Below, in pieces: positions 10,101 through 56,300 of a DNA stretch of 64,000 bases (position 1 is the stretch's first letter; each line of letters opens with the position of its first letter). The translations under genes were made by a program, and so were the position numbers. Location of the stretch: the NCBI GenBank assembly GCA_051362555.1, contig CM120645.1, positions 6,882,001 through 6,946,000 of the forward strand. Direction: 5' to 3'. The notes under the pieces were generated by a model. The model ran no database searches, was not told where the DNA came from, and saw only the letters and a list, made by a program, of their open reading frames with translations. The stretch comes from Lingula anatina (lineage: Eukaryota; Animalia; Brachiopoda).

Positions 10101-13100
10101 TAAATGTGACCTTAAAATTGACCTTTGACCTACTTTTCACCATGAACTGAACTTTGCAAATTTTGCTTCCCTTTTATCTCCAAAACTGGCAGAGATAGGT
10201 CCATAGTTTCTATTGAACTTGAATGGGAAGTCATATACTGGCAATCTAAATGTGACCTTAAAATTGACCTTTGACCTACTTTTCACCATGAACTGAACTT
10301 TGCAAATTTTGCTTCCCTTTTATCTCCAAAACTGGCACAGATTGGTCCATGGTTACTGTTGAACTTGAATAGGAAGTCATATACTGGCAATCTAAATGTG
10401 ACCTTAAAATTGACCTTTGACCTACTTTTCACCATGAACTGAACTTTGCAAATTTTGCTTCCCTTTTATCTCCAAAACTGGCAGAGATAGGTCCATAGTT
10501 ACTATTGAACTTGAATGGGAAGTCATATACTGGCAATCTAAATGTGACCTTAAAATTGACCTTTGACCTACTTTTCACTATGAACTGAACTTTGCAAATT
10601 TTGCTTCCCTTTTATCTCTAAAGTTACGCTGTATCAAAAAATACATATTGGTGGTGAAAGCAAAATGTGCAGTACGGTAATGGATAATAAATTTTGAACT
10701 CCGGAAAAATAATACATTAGGCTTGGCAAAGCAGACAACTTGTGGTCAAAAATGACATTATTTCATGAAATTTGAACACCTGGAACTTCAGAGCATCTCC
10801 CATTCCAAAAATTTTGACCAAAATGACCTTTTCTTTATTTTAATTAATTTTTTTCTGTAGGAAATTTATGGCACATTATGGTAACTCCAAAATTATAACA
10901 TTTAGTCCCTTTTATCTGCAAAACTGGCAGAGATAGGTCCATAGTTACTATTGAACTTGAATAGAAAGTCATATACTGGCAATCTTACTGTGACCTTGAA
11001 ATTGACATTTGACCTATTTTTCACCATGAACTGAACTTTGCAAATTTTGCTTCCCTTTTATCTCCAAAACTGGCAGAGATAGGTCCATAGTTACTATTGA
11101 ACTTGAATAGGAAGTCAAATACTGGCAATCTTACTGTGACCTTGAAATTGACCTTTGACCTACTTTTCACCATGAACTGAATTTTGCAAATTTTGCTTCC
11201 CTTTTATCTCTAAAACTGGCAGAGATAGGTCCATAGTTACTATTGAACTTGAATAGGAAGTCATATACTGGCAATCTAAATGTGACCTTAAAATTGACCT
11301 TTGACCTACTTTTCACTATGAACTGAACTTTGCAAATTTTGCTTCCCTTTTATCTCTAAAGTTACGCTGTATCAAAAAATACATATTGGTGGTGAAAGCA
11401 AAATGTGCAGTACGGTAATGGATAATAAATTTTGAACTCCGGAAAAATAATACATTAGGCTTGGCAAAGCAGACAACTTGTGGTCAAAAATGACATTATT
11501 TCATGAAATTTGAACACCTGGAACTTCAGAGCATCTCCCATTCCAAAAATTTTGACCAAAATGACCTTTTCTTTATTTTAATTAATTTTTTTCTGTAGGA
11601 AATTTATGGCACATTATGGTAACTCCAAAATTATAACATTTAGTCCCTTTTATCTGCAAAACTGGCAGAGATAGGTCCATAGTTACTATTGAACTTGAAT
11701 AGAAAGTCATATACTGGCAATCTTACTGTGACCTTGAAATTGACATTTGACCTATTTTTCACCATGAACTGAACTTTGCAAATTTTGCTTCCCTTTTATC
11801 TCCAAAACTGGCAGAGATAGGTCCATAGTTACTATTGAACTTGAATAGGAAGTCAAATACTGGCAATCTTACTGTGACCTTGAAATTGACCTTTGACCTA
11901 CTTTTCACCATGAACTGAATTTTGCAAATTTTGCTTCCCTTTTATCTCTAAAACTGGCAGAGATGGGTCCATAGTTATTATTGAACTTGAATAGGAAGTC
12001 ATATACTGGCAATCTAAGTGTGACCTTGAAATTGACCTTTGACCTACCTTACAATAAACTTAAATTTGATTGTACCATTTTTAGTTTCATATATTTTTTG
12101 CATATATTGAAAATTCTTGTTGATTGCATGTTTACAGCTTGTCAAGCACAAGACTGGGGGCTGTGTCCCTTATTTTGTGTATGTGGGGGTCTATACGAAT
12201 GCGCTTGCTCCAGCTGGTGGTACAATATTCGGAGGCGGTATCGCCTCTCTGATCCTCTAGTTCATTTTTAGATTCACAGTATATAGATTTGCATTAATTA
12301 TAAGGTTATAAGGTTTTTCTAATCTGTGAACTGCCAGATGTGAATTTCCATCTTGATAATCATTTTTCTTCATTCCTTCCTTATCAGCAAGCTTCTGCTG
12401 GCCTAAACATCCCATGCTTATAGTATCCTATAATCTTTGAACCTCAGGGTGAACATTTCCAGTTTGATGACTATTTTAATATCATATTCCTGTTTATATA
12501 TTATACTATTTTTGTTCCTTCCAGTGGACACTCCTCTCCCTGTGGGCCACTATCTCCAGTCTCACGCCATGTTGAAGGTGCGCTTTGAGCTGGCCTACCC
12601 ACTGGTGACTCCATCTGAGCTGGCAGCCAAGGGGGAGCTGGAGACAGCATTTGAAGTGAGTGTAAGAGAACATTAAACAAAAAGTTTTAGGCTGTGTTCA
12701 GAATAGAAGATATTGTACTATCGTGCCAGACAATAAAACTGATTACATTGACTGGGCCTTAGTGAGATTTACTGTTGAGATAGGTTGATCCTGCTGGTGT
12801 GATAACTGCTTAAAATGTTAATAAATAATAATGTAATTTAATAAGTTGTTAGTTAAAATCAGATTAAACACCCCACTTTATTTTGAAACCTACAAAATAG
12901 AAAAAATACATATATACATTGTGTTAAGTCATTAATTATACAGTAACTGTTCTTGTTTTTTATCCACAGTGTCCATTTGGCAGAATTGTGTTCATATTTG
13001 ACTACAAAAATGTCCAGTTCCTACGGAAGCTTCAGACACTGGTCACTGACATCAATGCCAAGGCTCTGGAACTTGACACTATGCCACAACATGTCATTGA

Positions 13101-19527: not shown

Positions 19528-19692
19528 CAGGCCCGTAGCCAGCAATTTCAAAAGGGGGGTTCTTTTTCTGAAAAAGTGGACCTTTTCCCATAAAAACTTC
19601 ATGTACCTAGATCAAATTTTACCCAGAGTGGACCTTTCCCAGCAAAAGGGGCGGTTCTTTCGAACCCCCGACCCCCCCTGGCTACGGGCCTG
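19528..19692. mobile_element. MITE with 15-bp TIRs and 5-bp TSD
   Basis: CAGGCCCGTAGCCAG ... CTGGCTACGGGCCTG, flanked by ATAAA on both sides. Related copy at 48550-48671. Confidence 0.85.
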
Positions 19693-29400: not shown

Positions 29401-32400
29401 CGTATCAACAGGTTTTATTGAAATAGAAAAATTAAGCATTTAAATAGAGGAACGCCTTCTTCGTTCACACAAGTTGTGTGCGCTTTCCATTCACGTTCAA
29501 GTTAACTTCAGATAGTGATTAAATAGTGCTTTGATACTTGGATGTACTAAAATCATATCTGTAGCTTAAGAAGAGCAGCTATTCAGAAATATTGATTAGA
29601 CAATGATTAAAAACTACACTTTCACTCAAATTGAATGTTATGATTCACCCAATTTTTTTTTTATATAAAATAATGAAAAATTGAATCTGAAACTGGATCT
29701 TACTTGAAACAAGTTATACTACGTTTCGGCCTTAACTCCTGTGATGACCAAAGTGTCTTATTCGAAGAAGTCATCATCAATATCCCAAGCTGTCTTACCT
29801 GGCACCGAGTCGCTGTTCCAGCAGTAAAGAAAGATGTCGTCATCGTTGGACCATTCATTTTCTTTTCCCGGCGGTTCTCTGGTACAGTTTTGGAGGGACA
29901 GCTCGTCGCCAGTGCAGGTAACGTTATGGTACCAGACGGGCCGGGTGCTTCTGCTGTACGGATTACCGTGGATGCCAATCCCGACGTCATAGCCGAGCTC
30001 CCGACACGCTACTTTCACCAGCTGCGGAGATGGCCTTGGGACACTGACGGCCCCCCAGTCCCCGAACTGCATGACTTCCAGTCTCCCGTATGATGCAGTG
30101 TGGGCAAAGTCGCTGAGCCTTACATCTGAAAGAAGTAAACAGCTTTAGGTGATTTACTGGTAAATGACTAGAGACACCAAGACAGGAGTTGCGGAAAAAG
30201 GTGACAATTTCTTAACCTATCATCGCAGAATGGATGAATGTTTTTTTTTTCGTGAACGTGAGCATGTTACAGGATCTAAACGCGTGTTCATACTGCCCAA
30301 CCTACCGAACTGTCCCACGTTATTGGACTGGTAACAGAAGACACCGACCGAGCCGTCATTCCAATGGCATTCCGGATAGAACCCACCGCCCACTCCAGCG
30401 GAGGGACACTCCAACAAGGTATCCTCACTGCCAGCGCACACGGGGTCCTTCAGCCAAAAGATCTTGTGGCTGGAATCACGGCCGTAGAAACCAGCGGGAA
30501 AGTTTAGGGCGCCGTCGTAACCTAAACTGCGACACGCGACCAAGGCGTCCTCCCGCGTCCAGTTGGTATCGCAGACAAGTCCTTCAACGCCTTTGTAGGT
30601 CATGCGCACGTAACCGTAACTGCCATGGTTCAGCGTATACACTTCATCTGAAGAATTGTAAATTAGTGTAGACTTATATTACACAATAATCACTGATTGT
30701 TAGCCACAATTCCTATTTCATAGATCTGGACGTTAAAAATTTAAGCAATGACCCCTTTTTTTTGCTGATAATGGTTGGTAAAAGACTATTCATTTATACT
30801 TTGAACATATAGTTTTTGCGTTTCCAATTGGAATATCCCAATAATATTTTAATGATAAGCTTCTTTTAACTGTTTTTCAGTTCGGTTTGTTAATCCAGGT
30901 ACATGCATATGCAGCACTTAGAAGATTCCCCTGCTCTGCAATTATATGATCAAAATATGACAGATGAATTTACAGCAGCGGCAGTCCTTAGTACCTTGTG
31001 GTATAGAACTGTTGTAGCACACAACACTTGCAGAGTGGCCAGATGAGCATGAAGCGTCGGTGTGAGGGCAATCCAAGAGTCGAGCTTCGTTCCCCGTGCA
31101 CAACCAATCTGTTTTTGAGTCAGAGTGACCCCAGGGATCGCTTGACCCACAACAAACGGCATGTCCCGCGTTGAAGCCTCGCTCTCGACATACCACTGTG
31201 GCCTCGATGTCAGTAAAGTTCCCATCGCAAACTGGTCGTCGGTTGTTCCAACTTCCTTCCTTCCAAAATTCCACTCTCCCCCAATTTTCTCTGTAAACTA
31301 TACCTGCAGTATGCAATAAATAACCAGAATATTTGACAGCTTGTGACGAAAAGGAAAACGTAAAAGCTGAAATGCATCAAAGTTCCAAATAGTTCCATAT
31401 TATCTGTAGATTTGCCAGTATGTATTTCTTGGTGAATAGTGAAACTTCTTCTTTTGTATTCTTCCAGTAAATACAAAAGGTTTTTGAAAGAAAATAGCGA
31501 AGTTTGCAGGCTACCTACTGTTGTTTACACTCTCCGAACAAAACACGGCGACGTCTTCGTGGTGACCACACAAATTCTCAGTCGGACCATAATAACGGCA
31601 ATTCAAAATCGAGTCTTCTGAGCCCGAGCATTGTGGGTAGCCGAAATAGGAGTTTCCTGAACCTTGACCATAGATTGAACTACTCGAAATTGGCATCCCA
31701 TCTAATAATATAAAAGGTACGTGAAAACACGACAATACAAAGATGCTCATTGTGACTAGTAAAAGTGCTGGCATGTCTCTAAAACAAGTATCCGCAACCT
31801 GGGTGTAAACATGGGCATCACCTGTCACTTTAGTCAACAGGAAGTGTCTGTTCTTTACATTATCATCAATTAAATGGAACTCCAAAACTTTCATTGTCAT
31901 ACCAGGATGCATTTCTACCGCGGACAACAGATTTTTAGAGAATATTTATTGCCTGCGCGGTAAATATCACAAGGTCGAGAAATGGAAAGAAAAAAGTTTG
32001 ATTTACAGAGTTAAATTAACTGTTCTTAAGACAACAGTTATTCAATTGGAACAAAATCCAGGGTCAAAACCCATTTACAATATATGCCATTGTTTTTGTC
32101 CTTCATTACCTATAAATCCCAGTTCCTTGCACAGAACTCTTGCGTCCTGCCAGTGCCAATGTCTGGAACAAATAGTGCCCCAATTTCCATCAATGGCCAT
32201 CTCCACGCGGCCATAATTTGGCCCAGGAACTAGACGAAATTCCGGTTCTGGGAACACATTTGAATAATTCATAATTACCTACTGGTAAAAACTACTCATA
32301 CAACAGTGATACCAACTGACTGCATGGTAATATATCCGAATACACGTACGGTGGTTTAAAAACTATTGCTTGATGTTAGGTTCTTCAAAAGATGGGATGC

Positions 32401-32967
32401 TTTTGACAGCATTTAAATTACACTCTGCGCCAATTTTCACGTAGAGAAACACCATCTTTGCTTTTTTGCATATTTCAGGACAACTTTTTTCCTTATGTTA
32501 TGAAGCTCATTGCACAATTCCACATTTCAATGATTTACTTTAAACTTTTTCACAAATTAAGCTGACTGTAAGTTCTTTAGAAAAAAAAACAAGAAGTAAG
32601 GGTCGTTAAAACAAAAACTACCTGAGACATTCCAGCAAAAAACAACTGCATCCTCACAATTCAATGACGAAAAATCTCCCCATTCGGTGATATTTAAATT
32701 GTCCAATGGAACACCTCCATACAAGCATGTCCCGATGTTGTCATGTGACCCATTCCCACATGACACCTGGTCAAAGTGGATTGGTCGAGATGCTTGGTGA
32801 AGCCACGTGTTCACGGATTTCCCTGTAGCGTAATTCAGCGACTTGCAGACGGCTGCTGCTTCAGAATCTGTGAAATCATTTCTGCATATTGTCCCCCACT
32901 GGTTGGTATCCTGACGCAAGACTTCCACTCTTCCAAACCACGACCCACTCAGCTGTGTTTGGATGCC
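20487..32967 (-). CDS. Multi-exon scavenger receptor cysteine-rich (DMBT1-like) mosaic protein: 7 SRCR, CUB, 2 PAN/apple, fibrinogen-like, EGF, PAN; 5' exon(s) not located
   Basis: SRCR exons (GRVEV..WGTIC..W..A.V.C..LG) at ~32622-32967, 32075-32247+31515-31700, 30993-31305, 30306-30647, 29799-30126, 29051-29374, 28279-28412+27600-27786. CUB at 26937-27090+26537-26751 (YGPNLNCTWWI, CENDYVEVRD, YCG, VHFRSN). PAN at 25535-25782 and 24878-25099. Fibrinogen-like start PKTCAEV..SGWY..YCD..GGGWTL at 23236-23389. EGF CANGGHC..CTCAKGFYGEKCE at ~21500-21620. Final PAN-like exon ends in a stop at 20487. Confidence 0.85.
21190..21445. repeat. Interspersed repeat copy 1 (~170-250 bp family)
   Basis: AGTC(T/C)GCTA.GAACCG.AGTCC.TTCCC..TACTTTGTACAGGTGACA..CGTCCCA...GACTT.CATTCCTA..ACTACCATT..TGTCAC; also at 28070-28220 and inverted at 34280-34430. 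Confidence 0.8.
28070..28220. repeat. Interspersed repeat copy 2
   Basis: Matches 21190-21445. Confidence 0.8.
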
Positions 32968-34279
32968 TAAAAGAGGGTAAAATATATCAAATGAAAAAAA
33001 AAACAAAAGAAAATAAAAAAGGAAAAAGAATTTATTAATTTTCTTGGCGCAGAAGACTATACTTCGACAAACGTGATCAGTCCTATTAAAGAAAACATTG
33101 CTTGTTTAAAATTATAAAAGAGACACGGCAAATGCCAATCATTACTGCAGACTTCTGTGAATAAATCTTGAACTGAAGTAGACCAATTTCTTTGGCTTAT
33201 TAGGATTAGACCAATTTTCAGGCTCAAATTTTGTTGCACAGGCGTATCCAGACCAACCTGGCTAGTAATGCAGAAAACAATACACAGCATAAAAATTAAT
33301 AAAATTAAAAATTAAAAAAATCAAGTTTACTTTTGAAAAAATGTGTCAATGTGAGCAGCGCGATATTTTAACTTGGTGAGTTTCCTTGGCCTACAGATTT
33401 CAGCAAGTTCACACAAATCAATGACCATCAACTTTAAAAATGGTCATAGCCGGAAGAAAGGCATATACTATTACAATGGTGTCTACATACACAAAAGGGG
33501 CAGATATTGCTGTACAAACTTACTTCTCTTTTTCAATAAAGTTTGTACAGTAAATTACACAGCTGATGAAGTTCTTTGCGTAGTCTACTTATCTTTTCAG
33601 ATGAAATATGAAATGAGCTTCAAAATTATAAGTCAACAGAAAAATATGACTTGTTTCTCTTTTAGTTATAAGATATAGATACTTTGAACGTTGCATCTGA
33701 CGAGACTTCAGGTAACAATAATATTTATGATACATATATTGACTGAGAGTCAAGTAAGTCTTTTGTCCCCTGTAAAATTGCGGTGATGACACGCACTCAC
33801 AGATGTACACATTCATCAAAAACATTTTGAGTAGTTATTTCCATTGAAAAAAAATAATAAAAGGTAATTGATGTTGCCTGAACTTCCGTTACAAAGCACA
33901 ATTAATGATTTACACTCTAAACTATCCATTTTAGGGCCCCATCTGGGACATTTTTTACTTATGCCATTCTATACATGTTACTGGAAACCATTCAATTTCT
34001 ATAATTCCGTTGTTTTATGACAATTTAACATCTGAACCTTAATATTCTTTCAGCTAACCAGCTGGTCTAGCCATTGCACTGACCGATGAATTTTACTAAG
34101 AAATTTCGATCGAAAATCGACTTCAAGTCCAAAATATTCGTTTGCTAAAATAAATAAATGAGACAAATGCTTTTTGTGGGCATGCCATTCCATAGAGCTC
34201 AAGCTGCATTCAGTACTGTTTTAACAAAGTCTGTATTTAGACTCATAACAGGAAGTCTGATTGCCTCGTAATCCCTGCC

Positions 34280-43390: not shown

Positions 43391-46300
43391 TATAGCATTT
43401 GGAAATTTTTTTCATTTGGTAAAAGTAAGCTTAGTGTCAGACTTCTCTAACCTGATGTGCATCCAAGTCTATAATCATGGCCTTGCTGATTCCACAGTAC
43501 TCAAATGCAAATTTGATCGCCAGCGTAATGTCTGCATATGCACAGAAGCCTCCGCCATGACTGGCTGAGCAGTGGTGAAAGCCGCCACCGATGTTAACAG
43601 CCCAGCCCCTTTCTAGTGCCAACTTGCCTGCCTAGAAATCATATTATAATTATGCAATGCCATAAGTTATTATACGTGCTTATTATGGGTCGTACTGAAA
43701 ATGTCCTTTTTGACCTAAAAATATTCTTTCTGACAAGAAAACAAAATGCTTTCCAAAGCTTTTAAATCAACATTTGAAATATAACCAAATTAATAAAATT
43801 ATTGTTTTGTGGAAATCTATCATATTTTTAGTCTATTTTGCTTAAACTTTACAGAGTAATTCCTCTACCCACCAATATAGATCCTCCAGTCTGGTACCTG
43901 AATGGCCGCAGTACCTTGCGTTGGACCAGGAAGTTGGGGAGCAGTGCCACTGGTGGCACCTCTGTTATACCAGCCACAGTGATGCTCCACTGCAACATAG
44001 ACAGACACATGGGATGGATGAAGAATTGTAGTCTAGACTTAAGCTTAGCAAAGTGAGTGAAAAGTGTATGGCATTAAAGATGACCAGATCAGAAAAAGAG
44101 ATTTTTGAAATATGGTCAATATTTAGGGTGGGCAGACATTTTCAAACTGTAGAAATGAGAATAAGTAACAAGGATGGTAAGCCATCCTGAAAAAACAGTG
44201 TAAGTTGTATGTGCAACAACAACAATTATGTACACGTGCTAGACAGTCACATAAAAAATGCTTAGCATTGAAAACTAACTGTTCACTCTATGACAAGCTT
44301 ATGAACAATAAACTACATTTTTCTACAGATACATTTAGCAAGTAAGAACTAAAAATGTCTATACTCAGGCCCATTGTTGGGGGGGTCGGGGTTTTAAAAA
44401 ATTTGATCTTGATACAAGAAGATATCATGGTAAAAGGTCAACTTTTTCAGAGCCTTTGAAACTGCAGGCTGTGGGCCTGAATACTTCAATGCATAAGACA
44501 AATACTACATATTAAGCTACTCTTTCAGTAAAATGTAGTAAAAATAATAATAACAGTCTACCACATATACCGTACACATACTACAATACAAACTGAATAC
44601 CAGTCATAATATTCTACCATGTACAAAAAACTAGATTTCTCTTTAAAGTATGCTATATGTATGTACTAAGTGTCTTATTCTACATTTCACTACATGTTAA
44701 AACTGAGCATACACTGTTAGTCAATTTTATCCTTAGGCTAGTTATCATGCACTGACAAGGGTTTCCCTAGGATTTGGGGTACAGGGTCCCATATGTGAAT
44801 CTGTAATTTGGTCAATTTACAGGGAGGCCCAAGCAAACTCAACTAACTGACTTGAAAATTTTGAAATCCGTCCATGGAAATATGGCCATCTTTTGAGGCT
44901 AGCAGCAGTCCAAATTACAGCTGCATGGCTCTCTGGAGAAAGCCTTGTGCACTGGTATATATCTAAAGATATGCCAGGTAAGATTTATTAGTTTCCAATA
45001 CTAGGGCATGGAACAGGAGCTAGGCTCATGCATGCATATTAATTTTTCTCTACTTGCTTTTATTAGAAATTATCCACTAAGGCTTAAGAAATTAATTCCT
45101 AAAATTTTTCCTTTTCTAACATTATTGTAATTTATTAAAAGTAAAATAATTTTCTTTGTCAATTTGAGTATTATTTAAATCATTTATATTCATGCTAGTG
45201 AGACTATATGTACAAATGCCATGCATAGTACTGATTTCGAAAAATGCTTTTTCAACACCAGGAAGAAGATTTGTGTGCAGTTAAGTACTAATATTCAGCA
45301 CAAAGTGAATGGAATGGTTATAGAAGAGAAATAACACAAGCTCCCTGGGATGGTCAAGACAATTCACTGAAGCAATGTAACCATTTCCTGGCCCCTTTTT
45401 TCACAATAAATCTTGATTTACAAATTTAGGCAACTTTAACATTGTTCTCAAACTGTATCTTACAAATGGACTCGAATGATTAAATTACCTATAAGACATT
45501 GCTGGTCATGACCATACATGTACAAGCACTATATAAATCTGAATAAAAGCACTATATCAAAAGCCATGCTTCATTGTGGGGTACACTGTCACAGTGGTAC
45601 ACAATAAGTACAAAATAATGCTGGGAAAAACTGTGTCAGCATCTTGATTTCCTGAACTTCAATTTTCACACTGCTCTGAATGTTATCTCATCTCATACAG
45701 GTACAGTTGTATATGTGTACAACTTCGTCTCAAAAAAGCTTGACTGATTGGAGGAGAAATTACTAAGTAAGTTAATTCATGAAAAAAGTTATATACGAAA
45801 CATTTATAAACAGTAAGTTATTTAATAAGAGTAAACTGATCCATACAGCGACTGTTGATACATGTGCATGCAGTAGTATGGAGAGGGATGTTGTCGAATT
45901 AGCATTTTGCTTCCTTTCCCAAAAAGATTTCTTTAATATTTTAGTAATGAGTTAAATAAATGACTTGGTAAGTATGAGATGAGCAACAATATCAAGGCAG
46001 AGGATTCATATCAAAGAAATCAAGACTGCAATGACTGAACTGGGTATTCAAAGAGAGATAATTTGTACAAGTTTTTCTTTATTTTAATTTTTTCAGGATA
46101 GATACTGATAAAGAACAACCTTCATTTGCTGATAACTGTCAGGAAAAATCTAATTTTCTTTAAAAATCAATTAACTGATTGTAATACTCTAACCTAGATA
46201 TATACAGAAATAATTCATTAGCTGATGTTAGTAAATTCTTAATTTCAAAAGAATACCACCAAAGTCCACTATTCCCACAGAAAACCAGCTTCAGTCCATC

Positions 46301-48411
46301 TTTCATTATGCTGACACTTAGAATTTTTACAACAAACCTCCTACAGGTCAGAATATTATTCAAATTCTCCAAGAAAGAAAATTTAAATAACATTTTTCCC
46401 TTCCATATACCTCTGTGATAATACCATCCACAATAGTAGCAAGCTGTCAGAAAGCAAAGAGAGAGAGAACGTGGCAAAGGCTAAATAATTAAAATAAACA
46501 ATTTATTTCAAGGTCAATCAGTTCACCTTCTCCTGTCGCTTAATTAACAGCTACTTAGCATAAAGGAGCAAAATTTTAATTTACAGTAGGCTTAAAAGTC
46601 ATGCAATACCCTCATGCCAAAACAACTTTCCATAATCTGATTAAATTTTTTTTCAGGGTCAATCCTTACAAAAATGGCTAAAAAAAATCTATCCCTAGAC
46701 TGCGGTCAGTGAGTTCACATTACCTTCAGACTGTCCAGATATCTCTTGGGGTGGACAATCATCAGGTCATCTGCAGAGGCTTCGCGTGGTCGTACAGTGG
46801 TGTCATCCCTGATCATTCCTGCCTCTGGAACAAGACAATAAGAACAATTACATTATATATATTATATTTCATCACATGCTTCATCAATCTAAAACATACA
46901 TGACTGACTGGTGCAACAGCTAACTACATGTAGTACTGGCACTAGTACTTGTGCAAGGTGCAACTACCCACTGATTCTGTAGGTGGAATTTGACAACTGA
47001 TTTGCATGTAAACAAAGAGATTGTTTACTAGTAATTTACAGTTAAGTTCACGAGAATCTTACCATCTTAAAAATCTTACTTTCAGTAGTTAATAACATTT
47101 AAGTTTAACTTGACAATTTAGAGATTGTCTGAAGTGAGACTACCAAATGATGATATTATACAAGTATTATACAAGTATATCACCTTTAAGAAACTCATAG
47201 ACTCTCCCCCACTTCCCAGCATCAAATGGATGCACTTTCTCCATGCCCCAGAAGCTGATGTTGTACTCTGAGCAGTAGATCAAAGGCCAGCATGTCTCCG
47301 CCACATCAAAGTATAGCTGAGTTCTATGGTTTGACAGTGCACTGGCTGCTCTTCAAGGAGAAGACAAAAGAAAATTTTAGTATCCTATGAATGAAACCCA
47401 GAGTCTGCCACTGCAAGGACAACTTAATAACGTGTACTTAAGATTAATGAAAAACATTTAAGTTGGAATGTTCTACTCATATACATAACTGTGCATGACC
47501 ACTCCTATGCTTTGCATAGACTTGATGAGGACAAGATTATAACAAAATACAACTTTCTAGGGCACTCCCCTTCAGTGCACCCTGAGCTTCAGAGATAACT
47601 TGACACTAACCTCTTCACAATAGCCTATCTTCATCGTGTCAAGTTACCTCTGACGAAAATAGTTTGACCTAGTTTATTTAAGCCAATCGAATCCAAATTT
47701 CAAAATTTTTCACCAAAGTTTGGTGAAAACGCTGATTGGTTGACCGTTAATCGGCAATCCTCGGCTGATTCTGCAAGCTCTATACTTACAACAAAGTGTG
47801 CGGAGACATCCGAGTAGTTCCGAGTGCATAACCGTACACGAGTAACTACATAAAATAATGTGTTAAGTTATCTCTTGATTCTTTGCAAAATATGAGTATA
47901 TTGGAATTGAAACCAGAGCAGTTTGAGGCACTGCATCATTATCTACTGAGGGATGATGTATTTTGCGTGCTGCCCACAGGTTACGGCAAGTCCCTGATAT
48001 TCAGCCTTATCTTTGATTGGTCCGGATTTGAACCAAGCGCGCTTTGACTCGTTCGTGTTCATTGGCTAGATCGTTCAATGAGTTATTGAGTGCGGGCTTT
48101 AAATTTGATTGGCGGGCGGCGGGGGCAATCGAATGTGGTCAGAGGTAACTTGACACGATGAAGATAGGCTATTGTGAAGAAGTTAGTGTCAAGTTATCTC
48201 TGAAGCTCAGGGTGCTTCAGTGTAAAAAATAAAAATAATAATAATAATTCAACTTCTTTTTTTTTTATTTCTCCCAAAATGTTAAAAGAATAACTTAGTA
48301 AAATAACAACATTACCATTAAAATGTCTACAAATAAAACTCACCTATCCAGTTTGTTATGTTTATCAGTTTCACTGGGATTTTCATGGTCAGGTTTGTCG
48401 TCATCAGCCAT
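41191..48411 (-). CDS. HDAC11: Histone deacetylase 11 (class IV), 10 coding exons
   Basis: Exons 48344-48411, 47184-47350, 46724-46824, 43873-43989, 43452-43631, 43224-43320, 42960-43029, 42592-42700, 41874-42060, 41191-41405, phase-consistent. Motifs HPFDAGKWG, NIGGGFHHCS..GGGFCAYAD, IIDLDAHQGNGHERD, YNAGTDILDGDPLG, TSGGYQ. Confidence 0.97.
43350..43391. repeat. (AAT)n microsatellite
   Basis: ~14 AAT units in an HDAC11 intron. Confidence 0.95.
44366..44479. mobile_element. Degenerate copy of the CAGGCCC-TIR MITE family
   Basis: CAGGCCCA ... TGGGCCTG with a G-tract, and AAAAGGTCAACTTTTTCAG inverted relative to the 19528 copy. Confidence 0.55.
47578..48214. mobile_element. Non-autonomous DNA transposon, ~77-bp TIRs, 8-bp TSD, carrying a RecQ helicase fragment
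   Basis: TIR CACCCTGAGCTTCAGAGATAACTTGACACTAAC..CTTCACAATAGCCTATCTTCATCGTGTCAAGTTACCTCTGAC at 47578-47654, inverted at 48138-48214. TSD CTTCAGTG at 47570-47577 and 48215-48222. Confidence 0.92.
47892..48047 (+). pseudogene. RecQ-type DEAH helicase N-terminal fragment (motif 0/I)
   Basis: Translates MSILELKPEQFEALHHYLLRDDVFCVLPTGYGKSLIFSL...; LKPEQ and LPTGYGKSL are the RecQ Q-motif and Walker A. Confidence 0.8.
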
Positions 48412-48549
48412 GATGATGTATTGCTATGGTGATAGCTGCCTGTAGGCTTTTATGGTGATGAGGGGGTGAATTCACATGTTGGTGTTTGTTAATACTGAAA
48501 ACAACAGATATACAACATATACCAGAATCTGTCTGAATTTGTGCTATAG

Positions 48550-48671
48550 CAGTCCCTAGGCCAGTAACTTCAAAAGGGGGGGTCTTTTTCTGAAAAAGTG
48601 GACCTTCTACCATTTTCCAGCAAAAAAGGGGGTTCGTTCGAACCCCTGGAACCCCCCTGGCTATGAGCCTG
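48550..48671. mobile_element. CAGGCCC-TIR MITE copy with 5-bp TSD, inserted in the putative 3' LTR
   Basis: CAGTCCCTAGGCCAG...CTGGCTATGAGCCTG flanked by TATAG/TATAG; internal TTCAAAAGGGGGG..TTTTTCTGAAAAAGTGGACCTT as at 19528. Confidence 0.8.
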
Positions 48672-49340
48672 TATAGCATGTGGCTTATTTAATAAATAAT
48701 CAGAAATTCACTGTTTCCACTTAGTGAGTGAGATTACAGATCACTGTGTGTTGCCACTATATATCTATACAGATCTTGATCTACAGGAACATCCTTACAA
48801 GGATATCTCAGGTGTACACAATGTGAGGGTGTCACCTCACCACCTGACCTGTGTGTAACTCACCTCAGTATAAAAAATCTTGGCCCATGAAGAGCTGACC
48901 AGGTGAAGGAAAGAAAATGCTCGATCACAACATTCCCCCTACTTTTATTCAAAAAGAGTCAAAATTGGGTTAAGTTTTGCAAAAATGAATTAATACTTGT
49001 TTAGACATGTAAAAATTATCACATAAATGAAATTGTAATTTCCAGTCGATAGATTTGAGCAGACTGATGTTAGCTGTTGTTAATGCTAACGACATCACTG
49101 GAGTGAAAGTCTGCCAAAAATAAATTAATTATTTAATTTAAAAAAAAACAAAAAAAAAAAAAACAGAAAAGACTGTGATAACTGTTAACTCACCAGTTAG
49201 TCACATCACTCATTCAGTGATAGTCTATTCAAATAAATGAAATACTGGAAAGTCAAAAATAAAATCAAAATAGGCTGTAGTCATATGATACAACTGTCCA
49301 CTACATCACATAGTGATAATCTATTATACTGTGCGGATTA

Positions 49341-51620
49341 TTACCTTCTATAGACAGTAATACCATTTTCAGTTGTAACCTTTAAAACATGGCCCACATC
49401 CACCCCTCTGTGCCGTGCTAGAATATCTGCCGTTTCATAAATGATATAGTGAGTTGAGTGGCCCCCCTTTGTGGCAGCAGTATAGGGGGCATCTGACTCC
49501 AAGAGAAGCTTAGAGTCAGGAACCGCCCTAAGTGCTGCAAGTTGATGTTGGTTAAAATTAGCAGCAAGCCGGGTGAAACCAAAGTAAGTGTTTGGCTGCT
49601 GCTTTCTCCAAATTTCCAAGAGGGACTTGGAGCCTGTGAAGCAATGAAAGTGGATTTTCTGGGACTGTGGAACGCCACACAGTTTTAGATGAAACAGAAG
49701 GGAACGTATGGCAAACTCACCACCTTCAGAGTCCCCTTTCATGCCTCTACAGTGTACCACTAGGACGTGCCTAGGTTCTAGAAATGGCAAAATTCTGTGT
49801 AGCAACTCTACCTGATCCTGCCATTTTGACATGGGTTCAGTATGATCGAAACCTATCAGGCCAAATGCTGTCACTGAAGGTACCTTGACTAACTCTGAGA
49901 GAGCTTTAATGGCCTGGGTCAGTGTGCCCTGGGAAAGCTTACCAGCTAGCTTCGGGTGGAAACCGATGGCTATGTACTCGACCTTAGACAAAGTAGAGAG
50001 ATACCCTTTAGAGGGATATGTCTTGGGATCGCAATACACAGCCACCGTTCCCAGCAAATCTACCTCTTTCCCAGAACAAACGGGAGCCATACCTCTAAGA
50101 TTTTCCAACTTGCCCGAGTGTGGAAGACCAAAGGCAGCAATAGATCTATCTACGCGATAGTGGCTGTCAAAAGCTGGCCATACTAACTTTCTTGGTTCCC
50201 CAGCCTCCAGACCAGTTTCTGGCCCGCTGAACCCTCTGGTCCACAACAACCTCTGCTGCTCCGTGATAGAAGCAGACAGCTGTGTGAGGACTCTCCAGTC
50301 CAGCAGCACCCCGACAGAGTTGGCAGGGTATAAGGTGAAATGTGCTGGGACTGGCTTATTAAGGAATTTGCAGAAATTTTGCATGGCAGAAATTTGAAGT
50401 GGTGAAAACAAGCCATGTTGCAAATCTAATATATCAGGCAAGGCTGAAACAAACTGGTACAACGAATCCAGCTCTTGCTTGAAACCAAAAATGAAAATGG
50501 TCACCATCTCCAATGCCTTCACTATTATGCCCAAGATATTGGGCTCAAGGTTGGCCCGCTCACAAAAGATAGATGGAACATGCAGACCCAGTGAATGTTC
50601 CCTGAGCATATGTCTCTCCAATTTCACCCCACACCCAGGGACCACACAAAGCATCTTCGGGTGATCTTTTCTGGCCCTTTTGGGATCAGGTCCAACCACT
50701 CGAGATGTCATTTGGAGAAACCTTTCAGTATCCCTAGCTGAAGGAGGAGGAAGCTCCACTGGACCAACACGTTTATCAACTTTAGATTTCGCCGCAGCTG
50801 AAACCTTGCCAGTTTTTTTGCCCTGCCTCCACCAAGGAGCCCTCTTCTTCCCCTTTCGCTTACCGCTCCCTGTGGACTGATTCGATTCAGATCCAGAAGC
50901 AGAAACTGGAGTTCCTGCTGGAGCAGCAGCTTCAAAGTGTAAACCCGAAGAAGAAGAAATAGAAGGGTTTATTGGGATGGCGGTATTCTGCTGCAAGTTT
51001 GGGCCAGGATTAGAAGTATGAAGTAAACCGGGAGGAGTAACACTGGGCTCTGCTTCCCTCGGGACTCCTAAAATTCTAACCCCCTGACTGCAGTGAGGGC
51101 TGGAGTTGGGATCGATATTTTTTGATCTCACACCAAGTTCAGACTGGCCCCAGTGCGATACCCCCTGCATTGGCTCCACTGGAAAACCCTCATCGACCAC
51201 CTGGGTAACAACAGTCATGTTTGGACCTGCTCCAGGCCTGAAGACATGGGATGATCCGCCACACACCTCAGAGGGTGCAGACTTCACAACCTGCCCAGGT
51301 GGTATAAAGTTCTTGGTAAGGCGCCACACATTTTTGTCAATCCAAGTTTTGGATGCAAGGCCCCTAGATTGAAGCTGGTAAGCCACTTGCTGCAACCATG
51401 CTAAAGCCAGGGCAGACCTAGCAGGTGAACGAAGCTCCTTTTTATAAATGGCAGCCATTCCTGACACCAGGGTTCTAAAATAACATTGCTGATCTTCCCC
51501 AGGCAAAACCTGAACCAAGTCCTGCACAAATTTTGTGCCTGGGACATGAATAGGATACCCATGTTGTAATCTTACATTCACTTCCTTTACAATTGGTGCT
51601 TGCTCATTGTTGCTTGCCAT
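49341..51620 (-). CDS. Intronless 759-aa protein: low-complexity N-terminus with basic NLS, C2H2-like zinc finger, C-terminal TatD-like (amidohydrolase TIM barrel) nuclease domain
   Basis: Open ORF starting MASNNEQ at 51620 after acceptor TTGTTATTACAG|AT ATG. TatD motifs FDSHYR, IGFHP, GLIGFD, VVHCR, HFHCFTG, LLLESDAPY, TTENG. CVVPGC-x11-H-x4-H finger. KRKGKKR. Confidence 0.88.
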   Translation of the reverse strand: MASNNEQAPIVKEVNVRLQHGYPIHVPGTKFVQDLVQVLPGEDQQCYFRTLVSGMAAIYKKELRSPARSALALAWLQQVAYQLQSRGLASKTWIDKNVWRLTKNFIPPGQVVKSAPSEVCGGSSHVFRPGAGPNMTVVTQVVDEGFPVEPMQGVSHWGQSELGVRSKNIDPNSSPHCSQGVRILGVPREAEPSVTPPGLLHTSNPGPNLQQNTAIPINPSISSSSGLHFEAAAPAGTPVSASGSESNQSTGSGKRKGKKRAPWWRQGKKTGKVSAAAKSKVDKRVGPVELPPPSARDTERFLQMTSRVVGPDPKRARKDHPKMLCVVPGCGVKLERHMLREHSLGLHVPSIFCERANLEPNILGIIVKALEMVTIFIFGFKQELDSLYQFVSALPDILDLQHGLFSPLQISAMQNFCKFLNKPVPAHFTLYPANSVGVLLDWRVLTQLSASITEQQRLLWTRGFSGPETGLEAGEPRKLVWPAFDSHYRVDRSIAAFGLPHSGKLENLRGMAPVCSGKEVDLLGTVAVYCDPKTYPSKGYLSTLSKVEYIAIGFHPKLAGKLSQGTLTQAIKALSELVKVPSVTAFGLIGFDHTEPMSKWQDQVELLHRILPFLEPRHVLVVHCRGMKGDSEGGEFAIRSLLFHLKLCGVPQSQKIHFHCFTGSKSLLEIWRKQQPNTYFGFTRLAANFNQHQLAALRAVPDSKLLLESDAPYTAATKGGHSTHYIIYETADILARHRGVDVGHVLKVTTENGITVYRR

Positions 51621-51647
51621 ATCTGTAATAACAATGTACAATTAGGA

Positions 51648-52560
51648 TTAGATTTGACAGTTTGCACACGTGTTTGTTGACGTATAATGTTTCTGTTGTT
51701 GTTTATTAGCAGCCAAATATGCCTCAATCCAAGAGGGAATTTTTCTTTCCCTACAGGGCATTAGCCTGTCATGGTTTGTGACAAATATTACATATTTTAG
51801 CTTTACTTGATACAAATAGACAGACAATTTCTTTTCAATGATGGTGGCCCAATGAAAAAATTTTTTTTGTGATTGCCTTTAATTGTTGCCATTTCCAAAA
51901 CATAAACCAGATCCTTTTAAGCATAAGGTCTAAGCAAGATTTTAAGGTCATAAACTTGTTTCAAGAATTTTGAAGTTGCTTTTAATTGGCTGTAATATGA
52001 GATAATTTTATTCTTTGGACTAATTTTGAAATGTATTCACCATAAGAAGATTTTTTTAAATTTCAGATTTGGAACTGTTCACCATAGTTTTGGCTGGATT
52101 ACCAACTTTCTTCCAAAGCATGTGCATATAAGGGATATACCCATACCTCTGTTTTCAGAAGCATACAATGCACCTGCAATTTGCTGGATATATTTGTCTC
52201 ACTTACAAAAAAAAAAGTATCCATCAGGGTACGATTGAACCTTTCATCCTAACCAAATGGTTGGTATTGGAATAGCCTGATTTGTGTACATATGTAAAGC
52301 TGTACACAAATCCACAAACAACCAACTCACAAAATTCTGCCCATGTGTGTTTTTTGTAATTATGTCACTTGATTTGAAATAAGACACACATATGTAAGGT
52401 TTCATCTGGATCCGATCCAGAATGGATTGTGTAAATTGCAAGATGTACTGGTAACCCTTACGCAATGGCCATTGTACTTTTGTAAGCAAAAGATAAATTG
52501 GTATTAAAAAAGTTACACTTATCAAAGCAAATTACACCACCATGCTTAGATGGAAAATTC
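51648..52560 (-). pseudogene. Degenerate Gypsy integrase core and C-terminal domain
   Basis: Minus-strand peptides in shifting frames: KGYQYILQFT, HGQNFVSWLFVDLCTALH, ERFNRTLMD (52219-52245), DKYIQQIAGAL..SENRG (52166-52198), YDLKILLRPY*KDLVYVL (~51895-51952), KKLSVYLYQVKL, NHDRLMPCRERKIPSWI (51726-51776). Multiple stops and frameshifts. Confidence 0.85.
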
Positions 52561-53077
52561 ACTATGAATAGAATCCAAATACATACAATTAATTAATTTG
52601 GGAACAAAGATTTTGGCAAACAATACAATAAATTCAAACCAGACAAAAATTCTGCTCAGAATTCTATCTAAACTACAAAAGAATATTAAGCAAATAAGGA
52701 AAGAAAATGCTAGAACACAACAGTAAAATTAATTTTCCATAAATATAATTATTTCTCTGACAATTCTTTGACCCTTTTCACTTGATGTAATATTTTTTTT
52801 TTAATGTCACATATGTCAACGACAGCGATGCCATTTTCAGCAATATAAGAGAGTAAAATTAAATTCTTGGATCCAGGGTAATATGTGTAATATTACACTG
52901 CAATCAAGTATATTTCATTGTTCCAAGGTTCATGCAGAGTAAAACGTAATTTACAGTGAAATCTATAACAAACATATCCGGTGCATTTTCACGTATTGCC
53001 TACGCATCTGTAACGTTTTATTCGATGCACGGTCATTAAAAACTGAGTTAATGCCATAGGATTATCTCAAAACTCAC

Positions 53078-53130
53078 CAAAAATATAACACCCTACAAAA
53101 TATTTGCTGTGTACTCTTGCCACTTCCGGT
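53078..53130 (-). other. Putative non-coding leader exon of HDAC11 (and possibly of the TatD-like ORF)
   Basis: Consensus donor TTG|GTGAGT at 53077 on minus, just downstream of the CpG-containing promoter. Confidence 0.6.
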
Positions 53131-53205
53131 CTCTTCTGTTTTGACTTAGAACGAGGCACATCCGGGCAGTTCCGCAAATGGCGTGCGCTTTGAAGCCGCG
53201 AGCTG
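53115..53205. promoter_or_regulatory. Bidirectional promoter HDAC11/LIN37 with ETS, YY1-like and CDE/CHR-like motifs
   Basis: CACTTCCGGT (53121-53130), CAAATGGCG (53175-53183), GGCGTGCGC-TTTGAA (53180-53194) between divergent first exons. Confidence 0.65.
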
Positions 53206-53300
53206 AGTTGATACACAAAACTAACCAGTGATTATTATCATATTATAGCATCATATGAAGTGGGTTTGCGTCAGGGTGCTAAGCGAATTGTCAGTTGTGC

Positions 53301-56300
53301 ATGAAAATGAGTTCAAGGTCGAGATCAGGTATGGAATTATGCATTATTATTTTGGGATTCGTTCGCTGCTCTGATCCTGTTTTGACTCGAGTTCTGTCCA
53401 AGTTCTAAGCATTTTGAAGACGTCTAAACCGACATGTCATATGCAGCATGCCTGTGACATTTGTGTAGACCTATTGTGTTTGTGTGTGAGTGTGTGTTTG
53501 TTTGAATATATATTGCTTAAATGTTAAAGACAGTACCCCTAAAATTTCAAAGAAACGATTCCACTAAAACAACATGCAATAAAAATGAAAATCTGGTCTC
53601 ATCGAAAATTATATTAGATAATTAAAAATGCAGTTCGCCCACTGTCATTCGAATTAAAAGTATTAGATTCAGAGGACATTGTGTGTGACTGATTGGTTTT
53701 GTTGAATTTTGTTTCATTTTCTTTTGCATTGTAACCATTGTTTTTGTAGACAACAACACAGAGGTTGTTACTGCAAGAAGTCGCCTGGATGGAGTTTTGC
53801 AGACACTTGTGGATAAGAAGGACGATAGGTAAAGAACATTAAAAAATTCCCCCACGTTGTTGTATTATGATGAAATTCCTATTATCAATTTATACTTGGA
53901 TGTAGTTAAAACAATCAGAATCTGTCACTCCTTTCCATTTTGAAATCAGATTCAAAAATTTAATTTTGTTATTTATTATTGATGTAATTATTTTTCTTTA
54001 TAGAAATATTTTCTTCAGTACCCAAGATATCAATTTCTATGTTGTTTATGCTTGCCTTACTTTGGCATGCACTGTCTTTTTTCCCTTTTTGTCTGTATTA
54101 ACTTCTCTGTTGATATTCCAGCATAGAGATAGATGTTGACATTCAGATCAAAGAGGAGCCCACTGAAGACTCTCCAGTCAAGTAAGCATGCCATATTCTT
54201 TATCATCTGTTTTGAATGGTTTTACTAATGTCTGTATATTGGGACCTAGTCCAAAACAAAACACATTTAATTTAATGATAAGAAACATTGACAAATAAAA
54301 GCAAAAAAAGAAAGAAAAAAATGAAAATCATTTTCAATTATCTATATAATTATACTAATATTTATATAATTTGACTTTTAAAACTTCTATTTGCACTGAA
54401 TATGACTACCTTGGTTAAACTTAAACAATTGCTGTACTTATTTGTAAGTAAAGATGTATGTCGTTCACAACTGAACAACCTGATAGAAGCTAAATAGAGG
54501 TGTGTGTGTGTGTTAACTCTGACCAAAACTACATCTATTTTTCTGTTTTCTTTTTTCAGAGTGAGCACACCACGGAAATCTACCATTAGCACACCAGGCA
54601 GCAGTACAAAGTCCCCAGCAGCCAAGAAAAGAAAGAGAAAAGATGATGGGCCTGGTGGTGAGGTGGGCCAGTATCACCGTAAGTACTGTGATATATGATA
54701 ATTATCAAGCATTAGTCAATATACTTTTATATCTTTAGCTTACCTGGACATAGGCCTTCATCAGTCTGATGTGAGTAGATGTTGTTACTCACTGACCACT
54801 AGGTACTATAGTGGCCTCTCATAAATGTCAGGTAGATCAACAGATTTTGCTCCTGAACTTTAGTTGAATGTTTGCTTTCAGACACCTATGTAATGAAGCT
54901 GTTTGACCGTAGTGTGGATCTGGCTCAGTTCACTGAAAACACCCCACTGTATCCTGTGTGTCGAGCCTGGATACGCAACCAACCACACAACAGAGAGCTG
55001 GGCATCAAGAGATTAGAGACGCCTGAACCAGAGGAGTTGAGCGATGAGGAGGTATTAAGTTTTATAGACTTTGCTGAGCCTATATTCAGATTAAGCACTG
55101 TACCTCATGATTGTCTTTGTGAAAGTGGCAGTCTTTTTGTGTGTGCAGGCTTCATTCCAGTGCTCAAAGTTAACATACTATTTATTTATACTTATTTCTG
55201 TCCCAATTGTAACTTATATGGTAACTCCATTTTATCCTTTAGTAACATCACTAACATCAATATAGAATTATATTTACCAAAAAAAAAAATGAAAAAAAAA
55301 ATCTTATTATTTAATTTTCTGTGTATTACTCAGGAAGCAGAAGGCCCTAAGAACGTGTATCGTCTCCCTGCTGCCCTTGGTCCAGTAAAACGTGAACCTG
55401 GTCATGCATTCATGCACACTGACCTGAGAGTGCCCTCACCAGTACCTCAACCTGATCTGCCTCTGGATGTACATGCTGTAAGTACCTGTACTCTGGGGTC
55501 TTCTTTACAAACTGGTGAACGGTTTCATCCAAGATAGAATTCCTGTGTCATAGTAGTGATGATTGTTATTTTTTAAAGAATAAGATAAATATATATAAAT
55601 AAAATTATAATTGTTATTATTTATTTATCTGTTTAGGTTTTTATTTTATTTTATTCATTAATTTTTTTTTCTGCGATGGGGGGTGGGGGGGGGGGGGGGA
55701 GAACAGATCAAAATGTAATATGCTAGCTCAAGCACCACAGGGGCAAGACCCTTGAGATCGATGAAACAGTTAAGGTCAGTTTTTCATTTCAGTTGAAACC
55801 TGGCCTTAATTATGCATGAAAGTTATTTAGTATGATTGATTCAGAAGTTAATTTTTTTGTTTCAGGACCAGGACCAAGCCCCTCCAGCAGAACAGTTACT
55901 ACTCAACCACATGGTCAGATGGAAGGAGATCAGACAAAAGTAAATACTGCATTGCTATCAGTACAAAGAAGGACATTTTGGTCTTGTAGGAGTCTCAACA
56001 CTGAAAACTACATTTAAGTGTCAGCTGCCATTTTAAGATATGATCACTTTTGATACAGTCTGATTTTGCGTCTGTTATTAGTACACTGCAGTGGGTTTGA
56101 GTGTTGGGTTGAATTCAGCTCTTTTTTGTGCCATTATAGCAACATACTGCTGGGGATTTTTTTTTATATTTGGGGTGCATTTAACGTTTAAATATATTTC
56201 ATGTCTTTTAGGTGGAAAGTGCAGTCCATAGTCAATGAAGCTCGTTATGCAGAAAGTTTACATGTGATCAAAGATATATATGACTACCAGATGCAGCAGT

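Follow-up and report, generated by a model that had tools for sequence, protein, structure and literature searches.

The 64,000-nt stretch of Lingula anatina DNA considered here (contig CM120645.1, positions 6,882,001 to 6,946,000 of the forward strand; this whole stretch is called the window) contains an intact open reading frame (ORF) that is the third gene (ORF3) of a Ty3/Gypsy long terminal repeat (LTR) retrotransposon and encodes a TatD-type protein. The ORF occupies 51620-49341 of the minus strand, comprises 2280 nt and 759 amino acids (aa) in a single exon without any stop, and is by far the longest in the window, the runner-up having 226 aa. This ORF3 was inserted with its element into the first intron of a histone deacetylase (HDAC) gene; with a probability of about 0.7, purifying selection in the host has preserved it through the decay of all other parts of the element, and we regard it as a candidate domesticated gene. 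The original prediction, made from the letters of the window, had correctly described a stop-free frame of 2.28 kb beside a wrecked pol, and had proposed that it is maintained as a host gene.

The contrast with pol is indeed strong. Upstream of the ORF, at 51717..52342 of the minus strand, the C-terminal half of a Gypsy integrase persists as a decayed remnant, whose PHD finger is largely deleted in the window allele. In frameshift-aware alignments to the integrases of four relatives, the remnant contains 3-4 stops and 5-6 frameshifts and lacks 13-16 residues in 201-204 codons; for the related element L002, the counts over 201 codons are 3 stops and 5 frameshifts. Eight lesions in 617 nt of the remnant thus stand against none in 2277 nt of the ORF, in which about 29 would be expected at the remnant rate (conditional P 4e-6), and the earlier argument that neutral decay should have broken the frame holds. 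The elevated GC content, which had been used as a further argument, is real (ORF 0.481, integrase remnant 0.334, left flank 0.363), but ORF3 exceeds the integrase by 2-9 points also in 9/9 intact relatives, as compared to 15 points in the window. As the contrast is partly ancestral, GC richness was not accepted as an argument in its own right.

A Ty3/Gypsy element with TatD as its third gene

Relatives of the ORF protein were sought among 1.84 billion representative proteins with E-values up to 1e-10, and 650 were found, the best with 47% identity. Among the 29 relatives that were looked up, the named ones belong to Lingula, Argopecten, Ostrea, Haliotis, and marine symbiont bins or metagenomes, and it is most likely that the symbiont bins in question contain animal host DNA. 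Bins labelled as the bacterium Sedimenticola carry complete Gypsy elements, each about 12 kb long (L050-L058), and proteins from such bins bear the name “TatD family hydrolase”. No relative of the ORF was found in viral contigs. Searches for the corresponding loci gave 49 + 9 = 58 contigs, of which 38 were set aside for having less than 2600 nt upstream of the TatD domain, some of these also with an integrase; among the 20 loci that reach this length, 19 have an integrase ahead of TatD on the same strand. Pfam scans of six long contigs revealed the pol order protease, reverse transcriptase, RNase H, integrase and PHD finger (PR-RT-RH-IN-PHD), followed by TatD. Each of the eight third ORFs that were scanned is TatD, and the intact elements consist of gag, PR-RT-RH-IN-PHD and the TatD ORF3. 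The four gag ORFs scanned gave PNMA-like and helix-hairpin-helix matches, and with a helix-hairpin-helix at the start of gag and a PHD finger at the end of pol, these elements carry an unusual chromatin- and DNA-binding set (L002:611-3985, L029:235-1776, L033:228-1751, L052:1743-3680).

In the window, the C-terminal halves of the integrases of intact relatives match 52351-51717 by tblastn with E-values down to 2e-27, the best being those of L001 and L002, while Pfam searches of all frames did not detect this remnant, and gag, PR, RT, RH and the PHD finger had no match in the window. In a quick tree of 58 rows (long, top-ranked or named matches plus 11 element ORFs, without a cellular outgroup), the window ORF is placed in one clade with the ORF3s of L001 and L002 (SH-aLRT 99). 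Behind the ORF, a polypurine tract that contains AATAAA (PPT; 48933..48949, minus strand) is immediately followed by the TGT of the 3' LTR start (TGTTGTG...; 48906..48932, minus strand, far end not defined), and the same purine run followed by TGT occurs in 5 of the 12 relatives examined (L011, L029, L033, L053, L056). The 27 nt of this LTR start match 52696..52722 of the minus strand, likely the corresponding start of the 5' LTR, at 25 positions, with a chance expectation of about 5e-6 within the intron, and the LTR pair with 27 bp of similarity that had been described before is thereby corroborated. No target-site duplication (TSD) was found, and the sequence shared by the LTRs is only 27 nt long. 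The part of the window in which the tRNA primer-binding site would lie has been deleted or has decayed.

The upstream integrases, the shared closest elements L001 and L002, and the PPT with the LTR start together identify the ORF as the element's own third gene. It is not a gag, an env or a separate insertion, which also settles the earlier concern that it might be a recent arrival with its own TSD. It could be argued that a normal TatD paralogue of the host, of the TATDN2 type, or a retrocopy of it happens to lie here beside an unrelated integrase fragment, as Pfam recognizes TatD only, as the relatives are named plain TatD hydrolases in the databases, and as TATDN2 proteins have an HxH motif and long N-terminal extensions according to the available part of PMC10085689. 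This explanation is highly improbable and largely refuted by the position of 19 out of 20 informative relatives downstream of an integrase, by the closest elements common to ORF and remnant, by the PPT and LTR start that follow the ORF, and by the ends of the ORF, which show no TSD or poly(A) of their own.

The AG of a predicted splice acceptor (51623..51650, minus strand) lies 2 nt ahead of the ATG, and this arrangement recurs at the ORF3 of four of the 12 relatives listed (L002, L010, L013, L053). This recurrence suggests that ORF3 is expressed by splicing. The env gene of gypsy is expressed by splicing as well.

Alleles, selection and competing explanations

Ten DNA runs of the species contain the stretch or a part of it; three of these (X3, X7, X10) were examined together with one of another organism (X11), and copy number and synteny were deduced from reads only. 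The ORF is present in all three conspecific runs, with pieces at single-copy depth in each of them. In X10, one contig (record 5) leads from the ORF start through pol and HDAC exon 1 to LIN37, and this allele has its own 221-nt deletion (without 52012-52232), as well as 164 letters that replace 50 at 51668-51719 and give a longer PHD region. As X10 carries the copy at the same site, the insertion is older than the split of alleles that are about 8% apart. A locus that is polymorphic for the insertion, which had been named as an outcome that would speak against a host gene, was thus not encountered in these runs. In X11 (organism B), neither the ORF nor the HDAC exons were matched at 80%, and this organism is too distant to judge orthology.

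One joint in X3 (48671-52870) was considered as an allele with an empty site and rejected. It is likely spurious, because its short side has only 23 letters, its start lies at a repeat of very high copy number, and sequence within the part that it skips is covered in both X3 haplotypes. The repeat in question is short (48560-48671) and occurs also at 19538-19692 and 44398-44451. Another joint, in X10 (49228-49514; side of 44, without a known middle), has found no explanation and may stem from a paralogue.

Between alleles, insertions and deletions are distributed very unevenly. In the listed pieces of single-copy depth, which share the window allele and therefore are not independent, and with 3284 shorter pieces left out, there are 3 gap letters in 4713 nt of five ORF pieces (all in one piece, net +3), as opposed to 134 in 3931 nt of ten non-ORF pieces. 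The 25 ORF variants listed comprise 15 synonymous and 10 replacement changes, corresponding to an omega of 0.22-0.30 (P 0.0002-0.003), although these variants are the ORF share of 40 listed rows out of 806, which were picked by support and not at random, and this selectivity counts among the points against retention that are collected below. In X7, the folded domains diverge by 2.7%, compared to 6.8% outside the ORF, which implies an omega of 0.09-0.21 for these domains. The ratio of replacement to synonymous changes in the listed variants hence is not near 1, and the proposed purifying selection as a host gene is supported, within limits set by a single species label, a near-neutral linker and weak expression.

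Higher-depth contigs in the same runs are 15-23% diverged and represent the multi-copy parent family, and because of this divergence the open frame cannot be ascribed to recent gene conversion. The family offers another explanation for the intact frame, namely that selection acted in the transposon: a pol-less, non-autonomous derivative could have replicated with its ORF3 intact, and the present copy could have drifted since. The presence of such a diverged multi-copy family in the same genomes agrees with this, as do the intact ORF3s of active-looking relatives and a bulk ORF divergence to X10 that is near that of the flanks. The alleles at this one site, however, differ by large separate indels in pol and by hardly any in the ORF, and the family contigs lack the frameshift that the window has near 51850. 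Moreover, each of the 25 ORF variants in the list distinguishes the window from an X7 or X10 contig of single-copy depth, and for this reason the synonymous excess post-dates the insertion. Selection in the transposon followed by drift therefore appears improbable, and host retention after insertion is preferred.

Folded domains, metal site and transcription

The predicted structure of the protein has three confident parts (residues 8-100, 322-465 and 481-757) and a disordered linker of about 200 residues. The N-terminal part (51321..51599) is a five-helix domain with a predicted local distance difference test score (pLDDT) above 90 and without a specific fold match; its fold search returned generic helical repeats only (best Z 6.8), and the finger-helical domain was barely covered there. 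The linker (residues 111-311; 50688..51290) has a pLDDT below 50 and evolves near-neutrally in X7 (record 21), and a basic stretch in it, KRKGKKR at residue 254, is a possible nuclear localisation signal. It is followed by a family-specific module (residues 322-465; 50226..50657) of a C2H2-like zinc finger (C325, C330, H342, H347) and a helical domain, in which C325, C330 and H342 are invariant in all relatives that cover these positions. The C-terminal part is a TatD DNase TIM barrel (residues 481-757; 49350..50180; all of these segments are on the minus strand), identified by Pfam and Foldseek. TatD_DNase (PF01026) is the sole Pfam domain (residues 524-757, E 5.7e-25, 88.6 bits vs a cut-off of 27), and TatD structures occupy the top ranks in Foldseek (E 2e-11), with about 17-20% identity to solved TatDs. 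Residues 1-470 were assigned to no Pfam family and matched no specific fold, viral folds included, and thus no homology to env or viral fusion proteins was found by these searches; the ESM Atlas search gave leads below 0.9 only.

At 43 of the 46 columns that are conserved to at least 90%, zinc finger included, the window protein agrees with its family, and two of the three departures concern metal ligands. The HxH motif is lost (H487-Y-R489; 97 of 104 relatives have His at the position of 489), and the bridging Glu, which corresponds to E91 of E. coli TatD, is replaced by Leu588 (Glu in 97 and Asp in 3 of 104 relatives). The other ligands, H623, H659, E708 and D710, equivalent to H127, H152, E201 and D203, are kept. 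Among the ORF3s of elements, DSHxH is present in 12/12 and GExGxD in 11/12. The exchange E91A abolishes the exonuclease activity of E. coli TatD (PMC4176340, available text), and in TATDN1 the exchange E112A reduces both activities, class II being defined by the HxH motif (PMC10085689, available text). With two conserved metal-ligand residues lost, the protein is predicted to be nuclease-dead, and judging from its sequence it likely is a pseudo-nuclease in which the fold and the zinc finger are kept. Degenerate TatD sites are found also in two Lingula relatives (P0007 and P0173; LOC106167563 and LOC106161566), in an abalone protein (P0075; Haliotis XP_071100930) that has Leu at the bridging position, too, and in an oyster cluster (P0096; Ostrea XP_056014015) whose member XP_056014015 contains the finger-helical module twice. 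It is possible that these are independent captures.

The original prediction had placed the ORF between HDAC11 and LIN37, which has to be corrected. The minus-strand neighbour is a histone deacetylase gene with PF00850 matches downstream, which we take to be HDAC11 from its motifs, and RNA runs X12 and X15 contain the splice joint 53078 -> 48494. As this joint spans the element, the whole element lies in sense orientation within the first, 5' untranslated region (UTR) intron of the HDAC gene (48495..53077, minus strand, 4583 nt) and is not intergenic. The non-coding exon 1 (53078..53140, minus strand, outer end approximate) is arranged head-to-head with LIN37 and is a candidate for supplying promoter and splice donor to the ORF. 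A LIN37 exon of the window (family PF15306) matches LIN37 of Lingula anatina with 100% identity. The first exons of the two genes are only about 100-170 nt apart (53078-53326), and the interval likely is a bidirectional promoter.

RNA was assessed in 6-26% samples of four runs (X18, X19, X15, X12) with a mapping limit of 92% and a junction limit of three reads. Of the eight bins that lie wholly inside the ORF, 8, 6, 5 and 2 are covered in X18, X19, X15 and X12, respectively; the reads of the stranded run X15 are sense, and 0/4 bins of the upstream intron are covered in any run. Low transcript cover is therefore present, where its absence had been named as an argument against a host gene. With the Gypsy element inserted in sense orientation into the first HDAC intron, a mechanism can be envisaged in which the HDAC/LIN37 promoter drives a low-level transcription of the ORF, exon 1 is spliced to the acceptor of the element just before the ATG, and the 3' end is formed near the 3' LTR. 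The product then would bind nucleic acid or partners without cutting.

Several observations weigh against a host-retained gene. With regard to transcription, the RNA depth of the ORF is about 0.1-2.8, compared to 10-23 at the HDAC exon position, X12 is nearly nil, and no junction from exon 1 to the ORF was seen at the three-read limit in the four samples. The ORF cover could even be HDAC pre-mRNA, since diverged intron reads may fall below the mapping limit. With regard to selection, the X7 linker piece implies an omega of 0.68-0.96, and the bulk ORF divergence to X10 is 6.8% vs 7.8% outside, with an implied omega of 0.45-1.06; the X10 piece concerned (record 2) was placed at the locus by depth and adjacency, without a bridge. 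Stops in other alleles are not readable, the ORF is as distant from the family (17-23%) as the remnant (15%), and conservation is seen among alleles of one species label only. The loss of activity, finally, rests on motif equivalence and an alignment to YcfH. The simplest reading of the divergence data is that the frame and the folded domains are constrained and the linker drifts freely.

Such observations could also mean that a once useful or weakly constrained gene is now becoming a pseudogene, and that the survival of its frame is partly chance. The loss of two metal ligands, the weak expression, an implied omega of up to 1.06 against X10, and a chance of 0.05-0.10 that no stop arises over half of the X10 divergence all fit this scenario. 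A roughly 50-fold depletion of indels together with a synonymous excess between present-day alleles does not, nor does the near-complete preservation of the conserved columns, and we consider incipient pseudogenization rather unlikely. Continued host retention explains these features better.

Several further features of the window were noted. In X18 and X19, the join of HDAC exon 1 to exon 2 (48487-53103) retains about 13 nt of the intron start. Many HDAC exon positions of both runs also disagree with the window, perhaps because the species label covers a divergent lineage as well. HDAC intron 2 contains an element resembling a miniature inverted-repeat transposable element (47577-48215; 93-nt inverted ends, 92%), with plentiful RNA reads from related copies that are strongly stranded in X15. 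At 9445-12068, units of about 146 nt that are 93-97% alike are repeated in tandem, a 543-nt direct repeat with 98.7% identity is found at 1124-1666 and 4313-4853, and minus-strand exons at 30942-33105 presumably encode scavenger-receptor cysteine-rich domains, judging from their motifs.

Possible roles and known systems

For a retroelement, a TatD nuclease may be of use in trimming cDNA ends, in clearing by-products that would alert the host, or in processing RNA. What could a copy without nuclease activity do for the host? By analogy, and as a leading but tentative guess, it may be viewed as a nucleic-acid-binding decoy that interferes with the ORF3 of the multi-copy parent family, similar to the switch of sides against parent elements that has been proposed for Iris of Drosophila (PMC1262188, available text). 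About as open is a role as pseudo-nuclease adaptor in silencing or in DNA/RNA metabolism, in analogy to Maelstrom and EXD1, which are inactive nuclease derivatives that retain RNA binding (PMC5408684, available text). A broader and more doubtful idea is that a widespread clade of marine-invertebrate Gypsy elements has an active TatD as spliced third gene, and that hosts repeatedly captured and blunted it against the elements, as at this locus and in the two Lingula, the abalone and the oyster genes. If this is true, the repeated blunted captures would constitute a new class of nuclease-derived restriction factors.

To our knowledge, domesticated genes of LTR elements derive from gag, protease, integrase or env. 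In the literature accessible to us, with Repbase, most subscription journals and supplements outside the scope, no description of such TatD genes in LTR retroelements or of their domestication in Lingula was found. By term search, TatD is absent from the main text of a survey of mollusc LTR elements (PMC6238403, part available, supplements outside the scope), from a review on accessory domains (PMC6338049) and from the rotifer ORF3 paper PMC5408684. In a paper on a squid genome, one ORF of the Hox cluster bears the name TATDN2 (PMC6962438, available text). The present data show that one family of proteins, listed as “uncharacterized” or “TatD family hydrolase” for brachiopods, molluscs and symbiont bins, is retrotransposon cargo.

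Among proteins, the closest named one is Lingula LOC106164908 (XP_013398409), which has the same architecture, 47% identity over the C-terminal 445 residues, and a sister position in the tree, but is encoded at another locus and has kept both ligands. Further “uncharacterized” RefSeq genes of Lingula, Argopecten, Ostrea and Haliotis share the architecture at other loci. The class II TatDs (E. coli YcfH and YjjV, human TATDN2 and TATDN3; PMC4176340 and PMC10085689, available parts) have the TIM barrel and the motifs around D485, H487, H623, H659, E708 and D710 in common with the window protein, which differs from them by Arg in place of the second His of HxH, by Leu in place of the bridging Glu, by its single exon and by its retroelement origin.

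Among elements, the most similar systems are the LTR retrotransposons Juno and Vesta of bdelloid rotifers, which likewise carry an enzyme gene at the env position of Gypsy-like elements; their non-env ORF3s encode a DEDDy 3'-5' exonuclease and a GDSL esterase (PMC5408684, available text). They differ in fold from the window ORF, which is a TatD TIM barrel fused to zinc finger and helical domains in brachiopod and mollusc hosts, and for the rotifer ORFs the available text of the same paper reports no departure from neutrality and no host domestication. Iris (CG4715), in turn, resembles the window ORF in being a captured third ORF of an invertebrate LTR element whose protein has lost an ancestral functional site, but it is an envelope glycoprotein that has existed for at least 25 million years, is conserved across species and is under positive selection (PMC1262188, available text), whereas the window ORF encodes a nuclease-fold protein, is seen under one species label only, and still has remains of its element around it. 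Enzymatic ORF3s thus are already known from rotifer elements, and what is new is a host-kept, ligand-depleted TatD copy, a candidate for the capture of an enzymatic accessory ORF3 that is caught early. As the remains of the element surround the ORF and the genome has retained the parent family, selection before and after such a capture can be compared directly.

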